Assembly: GCF_045037415.1 (NCBI RefSeq)
Contig: NZ_CP173439.1
Source: Escherichia coli
GTDB lineage: Bacteria > Pseudomonadota > Gammaproteobacteria > Enterobacterales > Enterobacteriaceae
Length of the DNA stretch: 64,000 nucleotides
Direction: 5' to 3' (one strand)
Every line of letters begins with the position of its first letter. Positions within the stretch are counted from its first letter, which is position 1. Made by a program: the position numbers and the translations under genes. The notes beneath the pieces were generated by a model. That model did no database searches. It worked only from the letters and a program-made list of their open reading frames with translations, and was not told the origin of the DNA. Positions 39,500 to 55,993 of this stretch are shown piece by piece.

Positions 39500-39900
39500 T
39501 ATTTTCTTATCGCATCAAATTTATTTCACATATAAAAAAATGACAATTCATCGATGAATCGAATCGTGACGCAAGTTACGAAAATTACGATTCATGCAGC
39601 AAATCACATCACGAATTGAATCTAGAGTCAATTCGCTTTAACTCGTTGTTTTATTATTACTGATTCATCTATGAGTTGCGTTAAATTCATAGGTGAATCA
39701 TATGCGATTCACCTATGAATCCTTTTTATAATGTAAAATAAATTAAAATACATTATTTAAAACATAAGTTAATGATTCAAATAGCAAATCAGCAAAAACT
39801 TGTTTTTGCGTAGTGTGTGGTGCTTTTGGTGGTGAGAACCACCAACCTGTTGAGCCTTTTTGTGGAGTGGGTTAAATTATTTACGGATAAAGTCACCAGA
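39500..39900 (+). other. oriT: oriT region with F-like nic site
   Basis: Between traM and gene X; GCGTAGTGTGTGGTGCTTTTGG at about 39810-39832 resembles the F nic region; AT-rich tract and inverted repeats upstream. Confidence 0.7.
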
Positions 39901-41964: not shown

Positions 41965-42317
41965 TTTTCAGCCCCCATCATCTGTTGAGTTTCGGGACCC
42001 GCCGCAACGACGTGAAGCGCGGTTTGCGAAACGGCGTTGCGCCTTACATCCCGGCGGCCTTTTGCCGGGATGCCAGGAGCGCAGGCCACGGCGCGACAGA
42101 GGCGGCGCGACCGGAACGGTCGCTGCAAGCCCGGGGTTTTCACGCATCGGACCGTAGCGACAGCCCGAAACCGCGCCAGCGGGTTCGGCGGAGACTGGCA
42201 GGTGCGCCAGCAGCTGCCAGTCGGAGTCGGGCCTGACGACCGGATGCCGCCAGGCAGCCGGGAGCCGAAGGTGCGCCCGGCAGACAGGACAACACTGCAG
42301 TAGTCAGAATCAGAGCA
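41965..42317 (+). repeat. Structured GC-rich leading-region repeat, copy 1 (short form; ssi/Frpo-like)
   Basis: About 350 bp near-identical to the outer parts of copies at 47113 and 50479; many hairpins (CCCGGCGGCCTTTTGCCGGG). Confidence 0.7.
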
Positions 42318-42589
42318 GGAAGAAAAAGAGAATAATCACAGGGAAGGTGATGTGATTTCTGACAGGCCATAACCAGAGAAGGCGGGGGAAAAGAACGGGC
42401 GCCGCAGGCGCACGTTCATCCCCGTTCCTGAAGGGAAACGACCTTCCTGAAGTCAGGTTGTTCATGCCCGTACAACATCAGCAAGGAGAAAGGGGCTACC
42501 GGCGAACCAGCAGCCCCTTTATAAAGGCGCTTCAGTAGTCAGACCAGCATCAGTCCTGAAAAGGCGGGCCTGCGCCCGCCTCCAGGTTG

Positions 42590-44232: not shown

Positions 44233-46191
44233 TCAGGCGGCATCAGCCAGGTTATCGGTACGTTCAGTGGCATCCGTCTGTGGGCGTGGTGCACACATCC
44301 AGCCAGGCACCCAGCGGTTGTCTTTCATGTGGAACTCTGCATGTTCAGCCGCATCGCCTTTCTTCATCTTCTCCGCGTCCCGTGCAGCACCGGACAGTCC
44401 GGCCTCATTCAGGGCTGCGATAATCTGCGGCTTTTTCAGGTGTCCGAAGAAGTTTGCTTTTGTCGGCTGCCACCAGTCGCGCATGTGGAATCCGATAGCG
44501 GTTTCCAGCGGGTCAAGCGGACTGCGTGACGTGTGACCACACTCGCGGGTCTGAACGCCGTGGATGCTGCACGCAGTGCAGAAACTGAGCAGGGATAACA
44601 GCACCTCCTGGCTGAGTGACAGGAACGTCGTCATGTCCCGTGACCATCCCTCCGGCAACAGGGCGACCAAACGTGCTTTTTCTGCCATCAGCGCCATGAA
44701 TGCGGCACCTTCCTTCCCTGACGGCGCATCGCTGGTCAGCGAATAATGTTTACATTCCAGGCTGATTTGTGCTGGTTTACTGTACGCCCCGCTGCCAAAC
44801 ACATTCAGGCAGAGCGTCCATGCCAGCAGTGCCAGGGATTTGTCCGGCTGCTGCATCAGTGCTGCCTGGACTGCCAGCGTGCGCTCTGAGGACATTTTCG
44901 TCAGCAGTGGCAGACTGATTTCCTCCACGGAGGCTTTCTCCTGCACCTGTTCCGTGTGGTCAGCGTCGTCAGCCACATCATCCTCACTGCGTAACTGCAC
45001 ACCACGCTGGACACATACGTTTCCATAACGCCAGGACACCACCACGCCACTTCCGGCACGCATCTCCGGCGTCCACGCCCTGACCTTCGCCATGCAGTCA
45101 ATCAGCTTCATTTCTGCTTCCAGCAGGTCGGATTCCTCACACTGGTTTTCCAGCGCATCGTAACGTGCCATCAGTTCGTTCAGGCGTTCTTCTTCTGCCT
45201 CCGTCAGCACCGCTTCCGGCTCCGGCAGACTGCGGTATGTTCCGGCATCCTCACGGCACTCACCAACGGCCTCCATGCGTCCGGCACACCATCTCCAGCC
45301 CTCGGCTTCCCGAAGGTGTTCAGCAACAGCCTGGAGTTTTTCCAGCAGGGCAGCATCGAGCGCAACACAGTCCACATAGCCACCCTCGTCGTCGCTGAAC
45401 AAATCGGTGCGCAGTTCATCTGGCGAGAAGGCATCAGCCCCCACAAAGCGGAATTTAGTGTTCCCCACCACCGCCACTTCACTTTCGGTCACCAGACGAC
45501 GAATGGTCTGTACTTCCGGTTTTCCGCCCCATCCCGACTGACAGGCAGCTTCAAACACCTGCACCTGACGCGCGGTGTCGTTCTCCAGCGCCAGCGCCTG
45601 ACAGTGCTCTGTGGTGATGCGGTCTTCTGCCAGCGCATCGAGGATGACAGGCGCAAGGTCTGCCAGTTTCAGCATTCGCTGAACGTGGCGGGGTGAATAG
45701 CCCAGCAAATCACCGATTTGTGCAGGCGTTTTGCCTTCCTGCGCCATTGCACGGAATCCGGCAATCTGTTCGGCAGGGTGCATATCCCGACGATGACCGT
45801 TTTCAGTCATTGATGCGGCAGTCGCCAGTTCCTGCGGAATAACCTTCACGCGGACAGGCCAGTCAGCCGGAAGGATGTTGCGCTCTGCCAGCATGTTGAG
45901 TGCTGCCAGTCGGCGACCGCCTGCGGCGACACCGTAACGGTCACCTGGCAGGGCATGAACAACCAGATTCTGCAGCAGGCCGACGCCCTGAATGGACTCT
46001 GCCAGTTCGCTGACGGACTCCGCAGAATACGGCACCGTGCGCACATTCAGCGGTGACTTAATCAGCGAGGCCAGCGGCACGCTCACTTCAGCCGTCTCCG
46101 CCAGCAGGGCCGACAGGACTGTTTCCTGCGTTTTTGCAGGTTTACGGCTGGATTTACGCTCCGTTTTTACCTTAGACTCTGTAACTGACAT
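44233..46191 (-). CDS. ParB-like nuclease domain protein (leading region, 652 aa)
   Basis: N-terminal ParB/Srx-like domain; AGGAG RBS before ATG 46191. Confidence 0.75.
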   Translation of the reverse strand: MSVTESKVKTERKSSRKPAKTQETVLSALLAETAEVSVPLASLIKSPLNVRTVPYSAESVSELAESIQGVGLLQNLVVHALPGDRYGVAAGGRRLAALNMLAERNILPADWPVRVKVIPQELATAASMTENGHRRDMHPAEQIAGFRAMAQEGKTPAQIGDLLGYSPRHVQRMLKLADLAPVILDALAEDRITTEHCQALALENDTARQVQVFEAACQSGWGGKPEVQTIRRLVTESEVAVVGNTKFRFVGADAFSPDELRTDLFSDDEGGYVDCVALDAALLEKLQAVAEHLREAEGWRWCAGRMEAVGECREDAGTYRSLPEPEAVLTEAEEERLNELMARYDALENQCEESDLLEAEMKLIDCMAKVRAWTPEMRAGSGVVVSWRYGNVCVQRGVQLRSEDDVADDADHTEQVQEKASVEEISLPLLTKMSSERTLAVQAALMQQPDKSLALLAWTLCLNVFGSGAYSKPAQISLECKHYSLTSDAPSGKEGAAFMALMAEKARLVALLPEGWSRDMTTFLSLSQEVLLSLLSFCTACSIHGVQTRECGHTSRSPLDPLETAIGFHMRDWWQPTKANFFGHLKKPQIIAALNEAGLSGAARDAEKMKKGDAAEHAEFHMKDNRWVPGWMCAPRPQTDATERTDNLADAA

Positions 46192-46255
46192 ATATTTCTC
46201 CTTTGACCGGGGTGGTTGTATGTCTGCCGGACGTGATCCCCGTCCGGCACCTCTC

Positions 46256-47740
<1,485 letters not shown>

Positions 47741-47757
47741 GCAGGAAAAAGAAGAGC

Positions 47758-47813
47758 AGTAGCAGTAGCAGTAGCAGTAGCAGTAGCAGTAGCAGTAGCA
47801 GTAGCAGTAGCAG
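47758..47813 (+). repeat. Hexanucleotide tandem repeat (GCAGTA)n, about 9 units
   Basis: Perfect AGCAGT/GCAGTA repeats; not present at the equivalent position of copies 1 and 3. Confidence 0.9.
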
Positions 47814-47992
47814 GAACAACAACATCATCAGTAACAGACAAATGACAGGTCTGAAAAGACAGAAGCCCCCATCAGAACGTCCGCGTAATGAAAGGGGCGG
47901 CGCGTGAGCGCAGCCCCTTTCAGCGCCACCGGCGCGCGGTCTTTTCCCGGCGCGGACAGACGGGCATTTATCCTCCCGCCAGCCCTGTGTCA

Positions 47993-48556
47993 TCAGGCAC
48001 GCAAACGAATAATCATCGTCGGGACATCGGTATAAGCAAACGTGCCGCGCGGCAGCTCCTCGCGGACGTCAGAAAACGGTAACAGCTTCTCCTGCTGGCG
48101 TGGCCCGTTGAGACAGACGGCAACCAGAACGCCCCCCGGACGCAACAGGGAAAAAGCCCGCAGGATATGCCGGATATCCTGCCCGTGACTGAACGGCGGA
48201 TTCATAATGATCCGGCTGTAATACTGCACCGGCTGCCATTCCATGAAGTCGCCACACTGAACCCTGACACCGTTAAAATTTTCCCGCAGATACCGGACCA
48301 GCCCGCTGTTAATCTCCACCGCATCACACATGGCCTCCGGCGCGGTATCCCGAATAGCCCGCAGTATGGCCCCGGTGCCGGCAGAGGGTTCCAGAATGTG
48401 ATCACGGTTGCTGATTTCCGCCAGCGTCACCAGGCGATCACAGACCGGGGCAGGAGTCACAAAAAGCTGAGATTCAGCCCGGATTTCAGCAACCGGCGCG
48501 GCGTTATCCAGCCTTGCGCGCATCAGCCGGATACGTTCTCTTAACTGACTGTGCAT
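47993..48556 (-). CDS. Orphan SAM-dependent DNA adenine methyltransferase-like protein
   Basis: SAM-binding LEPSAGTGAI and NPPF catalytic motif; no adjacent restriction gene. Confidence 0.7.
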   Translation of the reverse strand: MHSQLRERIRLMRARLDNAAPVAEIRAESQLFVTPAPVCDRLVTLAEISNRDHILEPSAGTGAILRAIRDTAPEAMCDAVEINSGLVRYLRENFNGVRVQCGDFMEWQPVQYYSRIIMNPPFSHGQDIRHILRAFSLLRPGGVLVAVCLNGPRQQEKLLPFSDVREELPRGTFAYTDVPTMIIRLRA

Positions 48557-48602
48557 GTCATTATCTCCGTCATCCCCCGGGGATTTCCCGGGGGGATATA
48601 CC

Positions 48603-49964
48603 TTATTTCTGTGGGATTTCCGTGATTTTCATGTCGGTGATATACACATTCACCAGACGGAAATTATTGTCCATTGTGCGGCGGTAGCGGTATGCCCCGT
48701 GGTCTTCTGCTTCTTCCACACTGCGCACGGCCTTACAGTCCCGGGGCAGGGCGGCCCACTGCGCCTTTGTCATTTCCCGGAAACCTTCCCCCGGATAGTT
48801 GACTACCGGCGGACGCTTCGCGGCCTGACTGGCGACGGCAGCCTCTTCTGCCGATGGTGCTTTGTAGTCCGTGATGCGATCGGGCGTCACTTTCATCGTG
48901 CCGCTGTACCCGAGAAAACTGTAATTTGGCGTTGTGACTGAACTCACCGCCCCGTTGCTTTTGTTCACGCGGATGATAGTCAGCCACTCGCCCCGGCTGA
49001 AAACCTGTCCGCCCGGCTCAAAATCCTGTGTCCGGGTAACCACGCCGCCGCTTTCGTCCAACATGGCACGCTCATAGATCAGGCGGTTCTGATAGTGGTT
49101 AACCCAGCGTTGCTGATGCTGAATCTGCCGTTCATGACAGCGGATCGCAATTTCGCGGGCCTGCTCCGTGGTGATGATGTCATCATCCAGGGCCGACCAT
49201 AACGACCGGCTCCCTTCATACTGGCTTTTTTCTGCCGGGCGCGGATACGTATCCAGCGGGAAACAGGCGCTGATATGGTCATGACTGCTGATGAGTTTTG
49301 CCATATTCAGATCCAGCGATTCAGCCCGCCACATCGTCAGATATTTCTGCGACTGTGCGATGGTCTTTTCAGCCTTGCGCAAATCAGCTTCGATTTTTTT
49401 GATACGACGCCAGCGAACGTCCGGGCGTTCTTTATACTTCGCGTGAAGCAGTGCCGACCGCGCCCGTTCTTCCCAGTATTCCGCACGTTCAAAGAGCATC
49501 ACGGCACGTTTCATGCCGTTTTCAATACGCTGCGCATCACGACGGGCGCGGCGTTCGCTGTGATGCCCCACAAGAATGGGCTGACCGGGCGGGATCATCG
49601 CGGCCAGTCTTTCCACTTCATCAAGTGCCTGTGCGGATTCACTGGCCCGCTTTCCGCTGTATCCGGTAAACCGCTCCGCCCGTGCTTCCTGACGTTCAGC
49701 GAGCGTGCTGTCTTCATCCTCAATCTCTCCGGCAAGTGAGAGGAGCACGTCTTCCCGGCCCGGTGTCCAGGCTGGCGCGACAAACAGCGCCTGTCTGGGT
49801 GCCCAGCGAAAACCGGCATCATGCACTTTTTTATACGTTTCCTGGTCAAGACGTGACGCGGCATACAGGCGCAGTTTGTTGTCATCCGGTGAGTAGGTCG
49901 CGCGGTACATCTGCACAGGGCTGGCGGCTTCCGGGGCGGTCATGGTGATTGCTGCTAATGTCAT
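48603..49964 (-). CDS. Leading-region protein of unknown function (453 aa)
   Basis: Long ORF with Arg/Glu-rich coiled-coil-like centre; no recognised catalytic motif. Confidence 0.5.
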   Translation of the reverse strand: MTLAAITMTAPEAASPVQMYRATYSPDDNKLRLYAASRLDQETYKKVHDAGFRWAPRQALFVAPAWTPGREDVLLSLAGEIEDEDSTLAERQEARAERFTGYSGKRASESAQALDEVERLAAMIPPGQPILVGHHSERRARRDAQRIENGMKRAVMLFERAEYWEERARSALLHAKYKERPDVRWRRIKKIEADLRKAEKTIAQSQKYLTMWRAESLDLNMAKLISSHDHISACFPLDTYPRPAEKSQYEGSRSLWSALDDDIITTEQAREIAIRCHERQIQHQQRWVNHYQNRLIYERAMLDESGGVVTRTQDFEPGGQVFSRGEWLTIIRVNKSNGAVSSVTTPNYSFLGYSGTMKVTPDRITDYKAPSAEEAAVASQAAKRPPVVNYPGEGFREMTKAQWAALPRDCKAVRSVEEAEDHGAYRYRRTMDNNFRLVNVYITDMKITEIPQK

Positions 49965-50015
49965 AAAATGTTCTCCTTCCGTCTGTTGCCGCCCCTCGCG
50001 GGGCGGCTCACCTCA

Positions 50016-50246
50016 TCAGTTAAAAGCGCGTTTCAGTTCGAGTGTGCGGAGCACCTGCCCGAAGGCCGTGTTTTTCATGGCGGGGATGTGTACACCACGC
50101 CCCCGGTGAAAACTCCGGGCAATGTGTCGCCCGAAGGCTTTCAGCACGGGGTCAATTTCCGGCGCGGGGATGTCTTCGCGTCTGAAACGGGGATGACGGC
50201 GGGGCTTTACAGCCGCTGCGGAAGGTGAAACAATACTTACTGTCAT
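50016..50246 (-). CDS. hypothetical small basic protein
   Basis: 76-aa ORF between repeat copy 3 and ORF453. Confidence 0.3.
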   Translation of the reverse strand: MTVSIVSPSAAAVKPRRHPRFRREDIPAPEIDPVLKAFGRHIARSFHRGRGVHIPAMKNTAFGQVLRTLELKRAFN

Positions 50247-50478
50247 AAATGAAACTCCTTATGACAAATTGGTTAATAATGCCGTCAAAATTGGTTGCGC
50301 AATTCTTACGGCGTGGATTAAGCAGGTCCCTGACCTGCTTTTTTCATATCTGCGTCTGACGTTCTCCGGTGTTTTCCTCCTTCTGTTCCTGCGTTCTCAT
50401 TACCTGCCAGCCGGATGACTGACAGAACAAATAAATGCATATTGCCGGAGCCTGAAATAAATCCTGATTTTTAAAGAA

Positions 50479-51092
50479 CATCACCCGTTGAGTTTCGGGA
50501 GCCGCGGTTTTGACGTTTCGCGGGAACCTGCTGCTGTATTCCCTGTGGTATGAACTTCACCCGTTTGAGAACCTTCGCCGCAAGGGGCATCACTGCCACG
50601 GCCTGACGCACCTGTCCTGGGCAGAACGCAAAATTTTTTACCGGGTTTTGGGTAAAAAATTTTGTGGGCTGTTCATTTACCCTGGACAGTCAGTGCGGCA
50701 GGTTGTGGCTGTATCAGCCCCCGGCGACAGGGACTCATACGGGTGTGTGGCACCGGCAGGCAATGAGCAGGGACCCGCCGCAACGACGGAGAGCGCGTGC
50801 GCGAAACGGCGTTGCCCCTTACATCCCGGCGGCCTTTTGCCGGGATGCCGGGAGCGCAGGCCACGGCGCGACAAGGGTGGCGCGACCGGAACGGTCGCTG
50901 CAAGCCCGGGGTTTTCACGCATCGGACCGTAGCGACAGCCCGAAACCGCGCCAGCGGGTTCGGCGGAGACTGGCGGGTGCGCCAGCAGCTGCCTGTCGGA
51001 GTCGGGCCTGACGACCGGATGCCGCCAGGCAGCCGGGAGCCGAAGGTGCGCCCGGCAGACAGAACAACACTGCAGTAGTCAGAATCAGAGCA
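50479..51092 (+). repeat. Structured GC-rich leading-region repeat, copy 3 (long form; ssi/Frpo-like)
   Basis: About 615 bp near-identical to copy 2. Confidence 0.7.
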
Positions 51093-51283
51093 GCAGATAA
51101 AGGAACAACAACATCAGGAACAGTTCCATAACATAAGAAAGAAACACTCCTGAGTCAGACACATCACAGACGGGAAGGGTAACGGGCGACGCGCCAGCGT
51201 GGCCCGCTTCCCTTCCGGCAGGCGTCAGCCTGCCAGGGGTTTTCGCGCGGACTGACAGGCGGCCTCCACCGCCTGCCCCTGTA

Positions 51284-51475
51284 TCACCTGTTTCTGCTAC
51301 CCTGTAAGATGTAGTGACCGCCCAGGAAAACCGCCTGCTGATTCACCACAAAATCGCAGATTTCATCAACAATCTGCGCGGTGGTGAGCGGTTTCTGCCC
51401 CATTTCACGACGCCGCGCATTAATCACGGCCCTGTAATTACGCAGAATTTCGCGGGTTTCTGTGCTGATATTCAT
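51284..51475 (-). CDS. hypothetical small protein (63 aa)
   Basis: ORF with 4-bp overlap to the upstream ORF140. Confidence 0.35.
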   Translation of the reverse strand: MNISTETREILRNYRAVINARRREMGQKPLTTAQIVDEICDFVVNQQAVFLGGHYILQGSRNR

Positions 51476-51894
51476 GACATCGTCTCCCCGTCCAGCGCCT
51501 GTAACACAACGTCCATTGCTTCGCGTTCCTCCCTGACGAATGCGTCACCGTCGCCCCCGTTCTCACTCCCGACGGCATACAGGCGCTTCATTTCACTGCC
51601 TGCCAGCGCCATCACTTTTTCCAGCATCACCGCCGGGACTGTCACCTGACGGCTGGCGCGCTTTTCTTCCATCAGTTCACGAACAACGCCGTGAACAACG
51701 CTGACATCCGCACCATATTCAAAGGCATCGTCCAGCCGCTGCATGACGGTTTCCAGCTCATCGTCTGACAGGTTCCAGTCCTGGGCTATGTGACGCACAT
51801 CCCCACGGGTCAGCACTACGGCAAAAACGCATTCACTGTCCGGCACGTCTGTATCCAGCACTTCGCGGATAATTTCTTTAACAGTACAGTACAT
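51472..51894 (-). CDS. Leading-region protein, paralog of 53597..54031
   Basis: Shares MY(C/G)T...RQVTVPA...L layout with ORF 53597..54031. Confidence 0.5.
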   Translation of the reverse strand: MYCTVKEIIREVLDTDVPDSECVFAVVLTRGDVRHIAQDWNLSDDELETVMQRLDDAFEYGADVSVVHGVVRELMEEKRASRQVTVPAVMLEKVMALAGSEMKRLYAVGSENGGDGDAFVREEREAMDVVLQALDGETMS

Positions 51895-51940
51895 GTTCTC
51901 GTCTCCTTTACAGGGGCGGCATTGCCGCCCCGTCCGTTAA

Positions 51941-52366
51941 TCAGTCCAGTGCCGCGTAAATCGCGTTGCATTCGGGGTGAAATTCGATGTGACGCCACAA
52001 CTGCGCATCGCGCATCCGGTAAAGATGGGTCAGTCCTGCATCCCCGCTGTCGTGGTACAGCCACAACTGGCGGTTAATCACAAGGGAAGTCAGAATGATG
52101 CCTGCGGCATCGGCGCTGACCGTACGGTCAAACCAGTTTGCACCGTTCACCATGTGGAAACGGTCGCCATCCGGCATCATGTAACCGCCACCGTCCGGCA
52201 GGCGGATGAAGTGCCAGAATCCGCCTTCATATTCCGGCATCATTTTTTTCGCCAGCGCGTATACAGACGCTTCGGCATACAGAAAATCCAGGCCAAACAG
52301 GTAAGGCAGAAAGGAGAGACGGTCGCACTCTTCAACATTCAGAGTGACAGGTTTCGCATATTGCAT
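51941..52366 (-). CDS. KlcA/ArdB-like antirestriction protein (candidate)
   Basis: 141-aa acidic protein of ArdB/KlcA size in a leading region; assigned from recalled family features. Confidence 0.45.
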
Positions 52367-52781
52367 GATGTTTTCCTCCGTTGTTCACATATTCCGCGAC
52401 ACCGGGCGGTGCCGTGCCTCCATCTTTGCCGGGCCTGCAGGGTTGCAAGGGCGCAAGGGAAGCCGCAGCCTGACGCGCACGGCTGACGGGAGTTGGAGGG
52501 TGAGACCGCGAAATCTGAGCGGGTGAACGACCGGAAAATCACGGCAGACGGGAAGGAGGGACCGGGTGACCGCAGCGGTTCACCTTACCTTGCAACCCGC
52601 CCGCAGAAGCCCGGCTACGATGGAGGCACGGCACAGCCCGCACACGACGCTGAGGCCACATAACTGAAAACCCACAAGGCCATGCCCCGCATGGCCGGGT
52701 AAAGCGGAGCCTGCGGCGACATCCTTTTGCTCTTTCCGGGGACCGGCTGGAAAAGGCGGAGATTTTTCCCCGCCAGCGTCA

Positions 52782-53552
52782 TCATTTCCGGATTTTCGCC
52801 AGTGAATCCGCCATGCTGCGGATTTCGTTCCGGGCTTCCCGGACCACCTCCCGCAGAACACCACGGTCAAACCAGCGGCGGGGCGGTTCATCCGGTATAC
52901 GCAGCATATCGCAGGCCAGCCCACTGGACAGGATATGCTCCACACACTCACTGACCAGATACATTTCCACCGACGAAAAACGAGCGCCCCGGTTCAGGAT
53001 GGCATCGAGCACCACGGGCAGGTTTTCGTCGTCTTCATCGAGCCAGCAGGGGTGATCGCTTTCCTTCACCACCAGGCGAAAGCGGCGCGTCTGGCGGGTC
53101 AGCAACGTCTGACCGGTGGTGGTCAGCGCCGCACGGATACGCCGCGCATCTTCTGCCACCTGGTAACTGACACTGCATACTGCATCGCGTACCGCACCAA
53201 GAACGGCCCTGATTTCGTCCTCTGCCAGCCACTCACCGGCATACGGGAAAGACACCTGCGTTCCGTCTGCCGGAAGTACCGGCAGCGACTGCCACTGACT
53301 GCCGGACAGAACAAGTTCCGCTCCGGTTCCGGTCAGTTTCTGAATGGCAGAGGCCAGGAGCGGCGGCAGTACGCCGCCGTGACGGTTGATAAGTAACGTC
53401 GCCAGCCGGGGCGCATCCAGCCGCACGTAAATGCTGATCCAGCCCGGATACTTCGGGTTACGCTGGTCAACATCCGTCTCTTCCGGCCAGCCCTGCGCCA
53501 GCAACAGGTTGCTGGCGTGGCGATAAATCAGTGCATTCAGCGTTTCATTCAT
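52782..53552 (-). CDS. Leading-region protein of unknown function (256 aa)
   Basis: ORF with no recognised motif. Confidence 0.45.
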
Positions 53553-53596
53553 AATTCATGAACTCCCTGTATCGCCGCCCGGAGGCGGCGATAACA

Positions 53597-54031
53597 TCAG
53601 TCGTTTTCGTGTGTGTTGTTTTTCAGCAGGATGCGGACCTGATTAACCACCGCCTGACGGCGGGTGACGCATTCCGGGACGGCGAGGCCATGATCCCGGG
53701 CGGCCCATTCACGTTTCCACAATGCCTGTTCAGCGGTCTGAATCAGGGACGCCAGCAGTTCAGCAGGGACGGTCACCTGGCGGTTTTCTCTCACGTTATT
53801 GATGATCTCCATCGCCGCACCGGAAGAAATACCGGATTCAGTCCGCTGGTCTTCCGGGATGTCCTCCAGGCGCGCCAGGACAGTCCTGATTTCATGATCG
53901 GACAGGGAAATATCCATTCCGTCAGCGAGGGCCTGAATTTCTTCCGGGGACCAGATAACCAGCATCAGCGGCGTGTCTCCCGGATACTTTGCTGCCAGCT
54001 CCCGGCATAGCGTTTCGCATGTTCCGTACAT
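53597..54031 (-). CDS. Leading-region protein, paralog of 51472..51894
   Basis: 144 aa; shared RQVTVPAELL motif with ORF140. Confidence 0.5.
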   Translation of the reverse strand: MYGTCETLCRELAAKYPGDTPLMLVIWSPEEIQALADGMDISLSDHEIRTVLARLEDIPEDQRTESGISSGAAMEIINNVRENRQVTVPAELLASLIQTAEQALWKREWAARDHGLAVPECVTRRQAVVNQVRILLKNNTHEND

Positions 54032-54044
54032 TCTCGTCTCCTTC

Positions 54045-54266
54045 TCAATCTTTGAAGCAGGAATCCAGTTCCAGAATTTCGGTATACGCCTCCATGAACA
54101 GGCGATTGGCGCGATACAGCGTCTGGCGTGTCAGGCGTTCAACAAGCACATCGGAATCAAAGCGACAGCGATGCTCCATATCATTCAGCCTGGCCCGAAG
54201 GTCACACATGGTGTTGGCCACCTCCGCCACGTCGGCGCGAAGTTTTTCGTGTCCGGCATAGTTCAT
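54045..54266 (-). CDS. hypothetical small protein (73 aa)
   Basis: ORF ending 1 bp before the methyltransferase start. Confidence 0.35.
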   Translation of the reverse strand: MNYAGHEKLRADVAEVANTMCDLRARLNDMEHRCRFDSDVLVERLTRQTLYRANRLFMEAYTEILELDSCFKD

Positions 54267-54950
54267 TTACGCAGCCTCCGGTTCAAACCAGTTATCATTC
54301 GCGGCCCCCTGCTGCATGGCCCGTTGCACGGCGGCCAGTCGTTGCTGTCCGGCACGGTGATACTGTTCAAGCAGCTCGATACCGATATACCGGCGTCCGG
54401 ACTGAAGGGCGGCCACGCAGGTTGAGCCGCTGCCTGCAAACGGGTCCAGCACAATCGCGTTCGGGTGTGTGAAGCTCTCAATCAGCGGTTGCAGGCTGGT
54501 AACGGGCTTTTCAGTCGGGTGATGACGATTGCCTGAATATTTCCAGCCCAGCACGTCGGGCAATGGCTTCTGAGGCAGCGCCGGACGTCCTTTTGCCAGG
54601 ATGTAGGCGCATTCGTGGCGATAGCCCACATATGCGGCCTTCGATGTGTAGGTTTTGGTAAACACCAGGTGGCCAACCACGCTGAATCCCGCATTTTTCC
54701 AGGCGGCCATAAAGCGATCGACGCGGTTCCAGCCGTAGAAGCTGACCATCAGCGCATCTTTTTTCAGCACGCGGTACATTTCATTACAGGCCGGTTGCAG
54801 CCATTCATCGGTTTTATCGCCGGCGATGGTGCGCCCGGAACGGTCACGGAAACCGACGAGATACGGCGGGTCGGTGAGGATGAAATCGACAGCATTGCCC
54901 GGAAACGTGGCCATAACACGCACGCAGTCACCCAGGATAAAACGGGACAT
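54267..54950 (-). CDS. Orphan DNA methyltransferase (N6/N4 class, DPPY motif)
   Basis: Catalytic DPPY and SAM-binding DPFAGSGST motifs. Confidence 0.8.
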   Translation of the reverse strand: MSRFILGDCVRVMATFPGNAVDFILTDPPYLVGFRDRSGRTIAGDKTDEWLQPACNEMYRVLKKDALMVSFYGWNRVDRFMAAWKNAGFSVVGHLVFTKTYTSKAAYVGYRHECAYILAKGRPALPQKPLPDVLGWKYSGNRHHPTEKPVTSLQPLIESFTHPNAIVLDPFAGSGSTCVAALQSGRRYIGIELLEQYHRAGQQRLAAVQRAMQQGAANDNWFEPEAA

Positions 54951-55799
54951 AACACAGCACTCCTTCTCTTACAGAGGACACCGGGAGGGCACCCCTGTGG
55001 TGCCCGTTCCCCGCTGCCTGTGGGCTGTTCACCGCGTCCGGTAACGGGTCAGGCCGACCGTGGAATACCGCAGCCGTCGTCTTTTTGACGGCAAGGCTAT
55101 GCCGCGAAAGCGGCTTGAAGGGCGTTCATCAGAAAAGGGCGACGGGCTGGCGTACACTGTCACCGACGCCAGCCGGGAGCGGTAAAAGCGCCCGTCCCGT
55201 GCCCGCCGGACGCGGGACACTGACCACAGGCAGCGTTCCTGCCGCGCCGCGTCAGCCGGCGCAGTAAAAAGAGGAGCACGGCGACATCCTTTGTCGGAAA
55301 AGAAACGGGCGGTTGCCCGCCCGTCTCCGTCATACTTCATCCGCCATAATGCGCCACATTGTCGACTATCCACGCAGGTCCGGTGACTTCCGGCAGCTCA
55401 TCGTCATCTGTCGGGGAAGACCATTCCAGCTCCCCCCACAGCACATCAACAAGCTCGCCACGCTCATATCGCTGCCAGCCACAGAAATTGCAACCCTGTT
55501 CGGCATACCAGTGCTCCAGTGTGCAGCTGAAACGGCGGCTTAATTCTGCAATAACGTCGCTTTCCGGCTGACACCACGGCGTGTCGAAATCCACCTGAAT
55601 GAATTTTTCCCCTGACTGCTGATATTCAGGTCATACCCACAAGGCCACTTCACGCCATACCGTTCTGTATACCAGTGATATGCAGAAGGAACACCGTTCA
55701 GAACACCACCGTTAAAGCCATTCACTTCAACATCCAGGCGGGTGGGCAGAACCGTCAGCAGGTCAAACGGCATGGTTAAGTAGTTTCCGTCTCAGTTCG

Positions 55800-55990
55800 T
55801 GACGCAAAATGAGAAACCAATAAGAACTCAAAACGAGTCACAACAAGAACATAAAGAGACTCTAAAAGAGCAACGCCGCTTGACATAGACTCAAAACAAG
55901 ACACAATAAGAAACAACAAAAACTCAAAAAGATGCACCGACATAAAAGATGCTCAATTTGAGACAAATACAAACTCAAAACGAGGCAAAA
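55800..55990 (+). promoter_or_regulatory. parC: parC-like centromere/promoter iterons
   Basis: Repeated (A/G)ACTCAAAA(C/A)(G/A)AG-type motifs spaced about 11-22 bp upstream of parM. Confidence 0.55.
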
Positions 55991-55993
55991 AGA

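Follow-up and report, generated by a model that had tools for sequence, protein, structure and literature searches.

The 64,000-nucleotide (nt) stretch of Escherichia coli DNA analysed here (RefSeq assembly GCF_045037415.1, contig NZ_CP173439.1), referred to as the window throughout, contains an island of mostly small genes between parMR and ssb. With high confidence, this island represents the oriT-distal half of a leading region, that of an F-like IncF conjugative plasmid of the MOBF/MPF_F type, and hence part of an already described system. All of its genes lie on the minus strand, and each of its intergenic gaps folds into a long hairpin homologous to the single-stranded DNA (ssDNA) promoters of plasmids F and pESBL, from which the genes would be expressed as soon as the plasmid enters a recipient. 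Leading regions decide the survival of resistance plasmids in the first minutes in a new host, so that their uncharacterised genes are legitimate targets for study. The architecture, promoters, methylase and KlcA protein of such regions have already been worked out in F and pESBL (2020–2026), and an anti-defence hypothesis has been published for the same families of uncharacterised genes (Samuel et al., 2024; PMC11541004). The additions made here are modest. They comprise a pseudogene reading of two frameshifted open reading frames (ORFs), the probable mis-annotation of an ORF inside a promoter hairpin, explicit evidence for fusion of YdbA (DUF3560) with YdcA, and the placement of the antisense RNA AS-pc01 at a site where it would act only after double-strand conversion.

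The identity of the island was established by plasmid comparison. With the 12-kb stretch 46000-58100 of the window as query, more than 5000 plasmid records matched at 90–99% identity in a sequence search. Nearly all hosts of the matching plasmids were Escherichia, Klebsiella, Salmonella or Shigella, the majority of the plasmids were typed as conjugative, and the two closest records examined were typed IncF, MOBF and MPF_F. In addition, the distal (DUF1281) end of the island was present in 3097 of 5426 complete E. coli genomes. Because of this breadth of conservation, the island ORFs are considered real genes and not chance frames, many of which overlap one another in this region of 55–63% G+C. 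The encoded proteins are 77–98% identical to those of F and pESBL, most of them above 90%, and gene order matches. From the methylase gene to ssb, the F leading region (the ssp1, ssp2 and Frpo2 operons; yfdA...yffB, yfgB...) shows the same order at 92–98% protein identity, together with the same class-3, class-2 and class-1 hairpins (89–96% identity) in the same orientation relative to nic. F differs in lacking the Frpo-orf76-ydbA-ydcA module, and has its own neighbouring sequence at the place where, in the window, a DUF1281 remnant joins the parMR module. The IncI1 plasmid pESBL has identical synteny from DUF1281 through methylase, orf73, DUF1380, orf256, klcA, DUF1380 and orf63 to ssb (77–97% identity), but its conjugation system is of the IncI1 type with a NikB relaxase, its DUF1281 gene is intact and it also carries ardA. 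Furthermore, its orf76 homolog (46% identity) belongs to another operon, ydbA and ydcA are missing, and an Rfam scan did not find AS-pc01 in it. The ydaB-ydbA-ydcA module is instead shared with ColV plasmid pS88 and R100-type F-like plasmids. In pS88, from which the names YdbA and YdcA are taken, the order is yubI (antirestriction), two hypothetical genes, ydbA, ydcA (putative adenine methylase), ssb, yubL, a ParB-like gene, psiB and psiA (PMC3438092).

A preliminary description, made from the letters and ORFs alone, had already proposed a leading-region position with genes on the complement of the transferred strand, flanked by parMR and ssb, and it had listed a KlcA/ArdB-like candidate, two orphan methyltransferases, two paralogs of about 140 residues and several uncharacterised ORFs. 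This outline holds. The listed ORFs are all present on the minus strand, with one correction of place: the interval 50016-55773 does not include the 453-aa ORF or the second methyltransferase, which are found at 47993-49964. What the description lacked were the hairpin promoters and AS-pc01. The features are collected in Table 1.

Table 1. Features of the leading-region island, its predicted ssDNA promoters and its flanks (coordinates of the window; aa, amino acids; pI, isoelectric point).
Feature	Position	Strand	Remarks
DUF1281 remnant, upstream ORF	55540..55773	-	77 aa
DUF1281 remnant, downstream ORF	55337..55594	-	85 aa
Class-3 ssDNA promoter (predicted), upstream of methylase operon	54951..55336	+	stem 55012-55041 / 55206-55235
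M.EcoGIX-type methylase	54267..54950	-	227 aa, beta-class, DPPY motif
orf73 (YfcA-type)	54045..54266	-	73 aa
DUF1380 paralog 1 (YcgB/YubF-type)	53597..54031	-	144 aa, pI 4.8
orf256 (YchA/YubG/YffB-type)	52782..53552	-	256 aa
Class-2 ssDNA promoter (predicted), upstream of klcA; F ssp2 homolog	52367..52781	+	stem 52403-52434 / 52609-52640
KlcA/ArdB (F yfgB ortholog)	51941..52366	-	141 aa
DUF1380 paralog 2 (YcgC/YubJ-type)	51472..51894	-	140 aa, pI 4.3
orf63	51284..51475	-	63 aa
Class-1 (Frpo-type) ssDNA promoter (predicted), upstream of orf76-ydbA-ydcA	50479..51124	+	~300-nt hairpin 50501-50800
AS-pc01 antisense RNA gene	50241..50343	+	Rfam RF02875
orf76 (YdaB)	50016..50246	-	76 aa
YdbA	48603..49964	-	453 aa, DUF3560 at residues 89-206
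YdcA	47993..48556	-	187 aa, methyltransferase domain
ssb	46551..47129		flank of island
ParM/ParR	55949..57348		flank of island

The orientation of the island relative to oriT follows from two lines of evidence. Beyond the island, the order ssb, DUF905, ParB-like gene, psiB, psiA, hok, a 95-aa ORF, DUF932, SLT transglycosylase gene and traM is the same as in F. A nic-region motif, AGTGTGTGGTGCTTTTG, was found on the plus strand at 39812-39828, between traM and the SLT transglycosylase gene. Its 14-nt core, GTGTGGTGCTTTTG, matches F exactly on the equivalent strand, opposite the leading genes in both plasmids, and a longer version has two mismatches in the window. Synteny with F is the stronger of the two arguments. 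Together they indicate that the plus strand is the transferred strand, entering 5' first from about 39.8 kb, and that it is therefore the template for every island gene; the island thus lies on the first-transferred side of oriT.

The intergenic gaps provide further evidence. When the plus strand was folded as single-stranded DNA and its energy compared with that of shuffled controls, each gap of the island formed a long hairpin far stabler than the controls: -111 kcal/mol (z -7.3) for the class-3 gap 54951-55336, which contains inverted repeat I2, -105 kcal/mol (z -4.2) for the class-2 gap 52367-52781, and -93 kcal/mol (z -9.2) for the class-1 gap 50479-50800. Inverted repeat I1 of the class-2 element spans 32 nt and is 91% complementary. 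The class-3 element is 96.4% identical to F and 97.7% identical to the pESBL region upstream of M.EcoGIX; the class-2 element is 88.7% identical to F and 88.4% and 87% identical to the pESBL regions upstream of klcA and ardA, respectively. The class-1 hairpin, a stem-loop of about 300 nt on the transferred strand, is 92.5% identical to Frpo2 and 79% identical to Frpo1 of F. Three class-1 copies occur in the window in direct orientation at 91–97% identity, namely at 41994-42329 (partial), at 47124-47772 (upstream of ssb) and at 50479-51124, the last two being 91–96% identical to each other. One or other class of hairpin stands upstream of each operon. Across four sequences (the window, pSCU-105-1, F and pESBL), pairing of the class-2 hairpin was kept in 92% of cells, compared with 33–41% in controls in which the 3' partners were slid. 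Transcription starts of the pESBL ssDNA promoters have been mapped by 5' rapid amplification of cDNA ends, with class 3 heading M.EcoGIX, class 2 heading klcA and ardA, and class 1 corresponding to Frpo/ssi (Wen et al., 2025; PMC12672017). In F, ssp2, which lies upstream of yfgB, acts both as a promoter and as a roadblock to complementary-strand synthesis, and transfer into recipients that carry EcoKI or EcoGIII, or that are non-isogenic, depends on it (Fraikin et al., bioRxiv 10.64898/2026.01.09.698686). By analogy with these experiments, the elements of the window are predicted to be active on the entering strand.

The class-3 hairpin also bears on annotation. RefSeq places a 103-aa hypothetical protein at 55029..55340 (minus strand), wholly within this element. 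Among six plasmids, its codon positions 1, 2 and 3 have 6, 5 and 5 variable sites, respectively, hence no bias towards any position, and a 1-nt indel shifts its frame in F and pO157. Judged from these patterns of substitution, the ORF is probably mis-annotated and not a gene. On the plus strand of the same element (54994-55189), a match to the Erse small RNA (RF02757) spanned the whole model at 19 bits, against a gathering threshold of 138, and was set aside as a chance match. The class-2 hairpin has TTGCAA (52590-52595) and TACGAT (52616-52621) in its 3' arm, 20 nt apart; the idea that they could serve as promoter boxes, which would be feasible only if bulged bases shorten the helix, is speculation.

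The first two operons include two proteins whose function can be assigned. The 227-aa protein matches NF010253 at 497 bits (cutoff 244), is 90.7% identical to pESBL M.EcoGIX over 227 aa and 98.2% identical to the F methylase, and carries the sequence hallmark of the M.EcoGIX family, the DPPY motif, at residues 27-30. On this sequence basis it is classified as a beta-class DNA methyltransferase orthologous to M.EcoGIX. M.EcoGIX is an N6-methyladenine methylase specific for single strands and non-specific for site; expressed on the entering strand and silent in vegetative growth, it protects pESBL from restriction at entry in an orientation-dependent manner and counters EcoGIII (PMC7736820). Besides the methylases, no island ORF matches a restriction enzyme or other defence profile in NCBIfam or PADLOC, which justifies the label 'orphan'. 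The 141-aa protein matches the Pfam family Antirestrict (PF03230, E 3.7e-26, residues 45-141) and phrog_10132 (anti-restriction), and is 94–96% identical to F YfgB (94%) and pESBL KlcA. YfgB is in turn 93% identical to R64 ArdB (Fraikin et al., bioRxiv 10.64898/2026.01.09.698686). By homology, the protein is a KlcA/ArdB anti-restriction protein predicted to inhibit type I restriction.

The remaining proteins of these operons belong to families of no assigned function. The two DUF1380 proteins are paralogs (32% identity, E 2e-11), with PF07128 recorded on all homologs, and no others were detected in an all-against-all blastp of the island proteins. Single-sequence and profile searches of the PDB returned no relative of DUF1380. 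The label 'adenine-specific methyltransferase', which comes from UniProt-derived names and the table of Samuel et al., was tried as an explanation of DUF1380 and rejected, the hhalign probability against the adjacent methylase being 0.1%; the name seems to be a propagated annotation. The orf73 product matches phrog_4830, a family of unknown function, over its full length (E 1e-36), with 96% identity to F, 77% to pESBL and no Pfam match. The orf63 product, for which NCBIfam, PHROGs and Pfam gave no family, is 97% identical to both F and pESBL, and its gene and the stop of the gene upstream share 4 nt. For orf256, searches of Pfam, NCBIfam, PADLOC and the PDB were negative and only phrog_8919 (unknown function) matched; 429 homologs were found, with an identity of 83% or more throughout the 120 listed. 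An AlphaFold2 model of its product from 34 close homologs was unusable (mean predicted local distance difference test, pLDDT, 53.7).

The third operon, apparently a Frpo-bounded insertion between orf63 and the ssb promoter, encodes the second candidate methylase. YdcA matches methyltransferase profiles in PHROGs and PADLOC and shows motif I (EPSAGTG) before a catalytic NPPF in a Rossmann-type fold, the arrangement of a gamma-class N6-adenine methyltransferase. YdbA carries DUF3560 (PF12083, E 1e-36), and a PDB sequence search returned nothing credible for it. Its relatives, however, point to a partnership with YdcA. A representative library contained 3895 of them, and most of the best 150 are 620–800 aa long; among these 150, about 95 carry a fusion with a YdcA-like domain, and 93 of the 100 with at least 560 aa end in one (median 41% identity to YdcA of the window, ending a median of 15 residues before the C-terminus). 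When concatenated YdbA and YdcA were aligned with 64 fused relatives, invariant or near-invariant positions occurred in both halves, including the G-x-G of motif I, the NPPF and a near-invariant GHHS in DUF3560. AlphaFold2 modelling of the concatenated pair with this alignment gave a mean pLDDT of 89.3 and a predicted template modelling score of 0.62. The predicted model consists of a small N-terminal alpha/beta domain, long helices (DUF3560), beta-rich domains and a Rossmann-type C-terminal domain; in a fold search the last of these matched adenine methylases, and the hits to YdcA included DNA methylases as well as RNA methylases (METTL5, KsgA and Erm, for example). Fusions on betaproteobacterial MOBF plasmids, exemplified by WP_013723335.1 of pALIDE201, which neighbours ssb and DUF932 genes, share 40–57% identity over both halves and the same motifs. 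Gene context was taken from the plasmid record, metagenome contigs being too short to inform. In these plasmids the protein is one polypeptide of 620–800 aa, whereas the window has two cistrons 46 nt apart, with a GGAG ribosome-binding site for ydcA 8 nt before its ATG. A GC-rich palindrome, CCCCCCGGGAAATCCCCGGGGG, lies in this gap at 48574-48595, just before the ribosome-binding site, and might affect the coupling of the two genes. Taken together, the fusion evidence makes it most likely that YdbA and YdcA are the split form of one N6-adenine-type methyltransferase, with YdbA as the non-catalytic partner. As the DUF3560 family had already been tagged 'Methyltransferase domain protein' through structure comparison (Samuel et al., 2024; PMC11541004), this is a refinement; functional work on ydbA or ydcA was not found in the searchable literature. 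F has two Frpo copies and no module, whereas in the window the module lies between the last two of three copies, which suggests that the module was gained or lost by recombination between such copies.

The leading gene of this operon, orf76, encodes an extremely basic protein (pI 11.9) that is 75–100% identical among enterobacterial plasmids. A weak match to HU-CCDC81 (PF14908, i-E 7e-4 over 38 residues), a family also recorded on several homologs, makes an HU-like DNA-binding character possible. Its start overlaps AS-pc01, which was assigned to RF02875 at 91.2 bits (gathering threshold 79) over model positions 1-99 of 99. The RNA gene has a sigma-70-like promoter, TTTACA-17-AACAAT, at 50206-50234 (plus strand), ending 7 nt before the RNA, and a terminator at 50320-50340; in its first stem-loop, the RNA is complementary to the Shine-Dalgarno sequence and AUG of orf76. 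A 9-codon mini-ORF (MKKAGQGPA, 50346..50317, minus strand) overlaps the terminator stem. The template strand of AS-pc01 is absent from the recipient until conversion, and we therefore propose that the RNA serves to shut off expression specifically in the double-stranded plasmid. A broader and more doubtful reading, offered tentatively, takes Frpo, orf76, YdbA and YdcA as a self-contained entry module in which a two-subunit adenine methyltransferase is combined with AS-pc01 as a state-sensing off switch. In such a module the helical bundle and small beta domains of the modelled YdbA may target YdcA to the incoming single strand or the replisome, and AS-pc01 may silence the operon after double-strand conversion, in addition to the effect of losing the hairpin promoter.

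These elements can be assembled into a sequence of events modelled on F and pESBL, in which single-strand transcription, transient expression and protection from restriction have been studied by experiment. Led by its 5' end, the plus strand would enter the recipient from oriT near 39.8 kb and, before complementary-strand synthesis, long imperfect hairpins would form in each intergenic gap and mimic double-stranded promoters. RNA polymerase would then transcribe the downstream genes from the transferred strand: the M.EcoGIX-type methylase, orf73, DUF1380 and orf256 from the class-3 hairpin (operon 1), KlcA/ArdB, DUF1380 and orf63 from the class-2 hairpin (operon 2), orf76 (YdaB), YdbA and YdcA from a class-1 Frpo (operon 3), and ssb and the genes beyond from another class-1 Frpo (operon 4). 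In the first minutes in the recipient, the M.EcoGIX-type enzyme would methylate the incoming single strand, KlcA/ArdB would block type I restriction, and YdbA with YdcA would most likely serve as a second methylase split into two polypeptides. Complementary-strand synthesis would destroy the hairpins and turn the operons off, and AS-pc01, which needs the newly synthesised strand as its template, is probably a second lock on operon 3.

Several observations weigh against this scheme. Covariation in the class-2 hairpin is almost absent (one pair), four sequences being too few to measure it, and the hairpin arms show no sigma-70 -35/-10 consensus at normal linear spacing, so that the boxes are unplaced. 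The timing of expression, the start sites and the methylation are carried over from F and pESBL; as both plasmids lack the orf76-ydbA-ydcA operon, its zygotic induction has the Frpo copy as its sole basis. The DUF3560 part of the YdbA-YdcA model has no structural match, all fold matches being to the methylase domain, and fusion in relatives suggests an interaction of YdbA with YdcA without proving it. Finally, five protein families are still without a function.

The standing of those five families, orf256, orf73, orf63, orf76 and DUF1380, is the point at which an alternative deserves most weight. The preliminary description had put the uncharacterised ORFs forward as anti-defence candidates. 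Their leading-region position supports this in part, but 55337..55773 proves to be a pseudogene and the 453-aa ORF is the likely methylase partner YdbA, so that both leave the list. For the others, candidacy is by association, no profile or structure result having spoken for it or against it: leading regions have been described as anti-defence islands with orphan methylases and Frpo-like promoters, and their uncharacterised families have been proposed as anti-defence candidates (Samuel et al., 2024; PMC11541004). In Supplementary Table 1 of that study, the 30 families with the strongest enrichment include YdaB, DUF905, DUF1380 (two families), adenine methylase, KlcA-HS, YchA, YfcA, DUF1281 and DUF3560, in regions where known anti-defence genes cluster; the concept and the families are those of the present island, and the study is a statistical survey that gives no mechanism to the unknowns. 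The alternative, a serious contender even if somewhat short of an even chance, is that the five serve other establishment roles, such as single-strand handling, priming or timing of complementary-strand synthesis, regulation of the leading operons or host reprogramming. The basic, weakly HU-like orf76 product suggests nucleic-acid binding over enzyme inhibition, and non-defence leading-region proteins exist in SSB, PsiB and the ParB-like YfjB, the last described in terms of host reprogramming (PMC13370423). The F ssp2 hairpin itself influences the timing of DNA conversion. None of the five matches an anti-defence or defence profile, and orf256, orf73, orf63 and DUF1380 show no anti-restriction or anti-CRISPR homology in Pfam, NCBIfam, PHROGs, the PDB or PADLOC, which are not dedicated anti-defence libraries. 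Against these other roles stand the sharing of operons with the protective methylase and KlcA and the enrichment of the families noted above. Many DNA-mimic inhibitors are acidic, and the acidity of the DUF1380 proteins and DUF1281 (pI 4.3–4.8) is suggestive at most. Profile searches also gave orf256, orf73, orf63 and DUF1380 no homology to housekeeping or partition functions, a finding that would have counted against anti-defence candidacy had it gone the other way.

Two further alternatives concern the methyltransferases and the small ORFs. That both methyltransferases are restriction-modification remnants or epigenetic regulators in established cells, with no part in entry protection, is improbable. 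In PADLOC both do hit methylase profiles of type II and type I, and the fold of YdcA resembles RNA methylases as well. No restriction gene adjoins either of them, however; both genes lie downstream of predicted single-strand promoters, M.EcoGIX, the close relative of the 227-aa enzyme, is silent in vegetative growth, single-strand-acting and protective, as described above, and leading genes are undetectable in F donors. Least probable of all is the notion that the ORFs of 63, 73 and 76 aa are merely open frames in GC-rich DNA. The crowding of the region with overlapping chance ORFs and the spurious look of the annotated 103-aa ORF lend it some colour, but orf63, orf73 and orf76 keep their length and 75–97% identity across F, pESBL, Salmonella and Klebsiella plasmids and abut or overlap their neighbours in operon fashion. 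Moreover, orf73 belongs to a PHROG family over its full length, and orf76 comes with both a Shine-Dalgarno sequence and an antisense RNA of its own.

At the distal end of the island, the suspicion that the overlapping ORFs 55337..55594 and 55540..55773 form one frameshifted gene was well founded. Both align to a single 300-aa DUF1281 protein (YubB/YfdA-type), whose gene is intact in pESBL and in two related plasmids (L004 and L005); tblastn with the L004 protein recovered residues 155-212 and 210-300 in two frames. The shift site is a G4 run at 55609-55612. In pSCU-105-1, 99.2% identical, translation there stays in one frame (SQGEKF), which implies G5, and the two overlapping ORFs thus arise from one missing G. 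No full-length ORF of about 300 aa exists in the window, residues 1-154 being missing and about 155-300 split over two frames; RefSeq annotates the pSCU-105-1 counterpart as a pseudogene, 'incomplete; missing N-terminus'. The first 154 codons are absent in any case, be the missing G genuine or a homopolymer error. By its sequence, 55337..55773 is read as one gene, a 5'-truncated and frameshifted pseudogene remnant at a mosaic junction, and not as an anti-defence candidate. At this junction (55777-55990), DUF1281 homology ends at about 55777, G+C content drops from 0.63 to 0.40–0.45, and parMR follows together with parC-like repeats. Ahead of parM stand three direct repeats of 43 nt (55801, 55897 and 55948), presumably the parC centromere.

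A few minor observations concern the proximal end and its surroundings. A perfect hexanucleotide tandem repeat, (AGCAGT) x 9.8, occupies 47755-47813, flanked by the ydcA stop and by the Frpo copy that heads ssb; the counterpart site beside the other Frpo copy (51089-51116) is unrepeated, and small ORFs are annotated across the repeat in some records. In pRHBSTW-00177_5 (CP056798.1, positions 1-1387; 99.8% identical; L001 in our set), the match breaks off within the ssb promoter region and is followed by a group II intron reverse transcriptase gene (ltrA), so that ssb and the proximal leading region have been lost there. Colicin V export genes also lie in the window, near the island.

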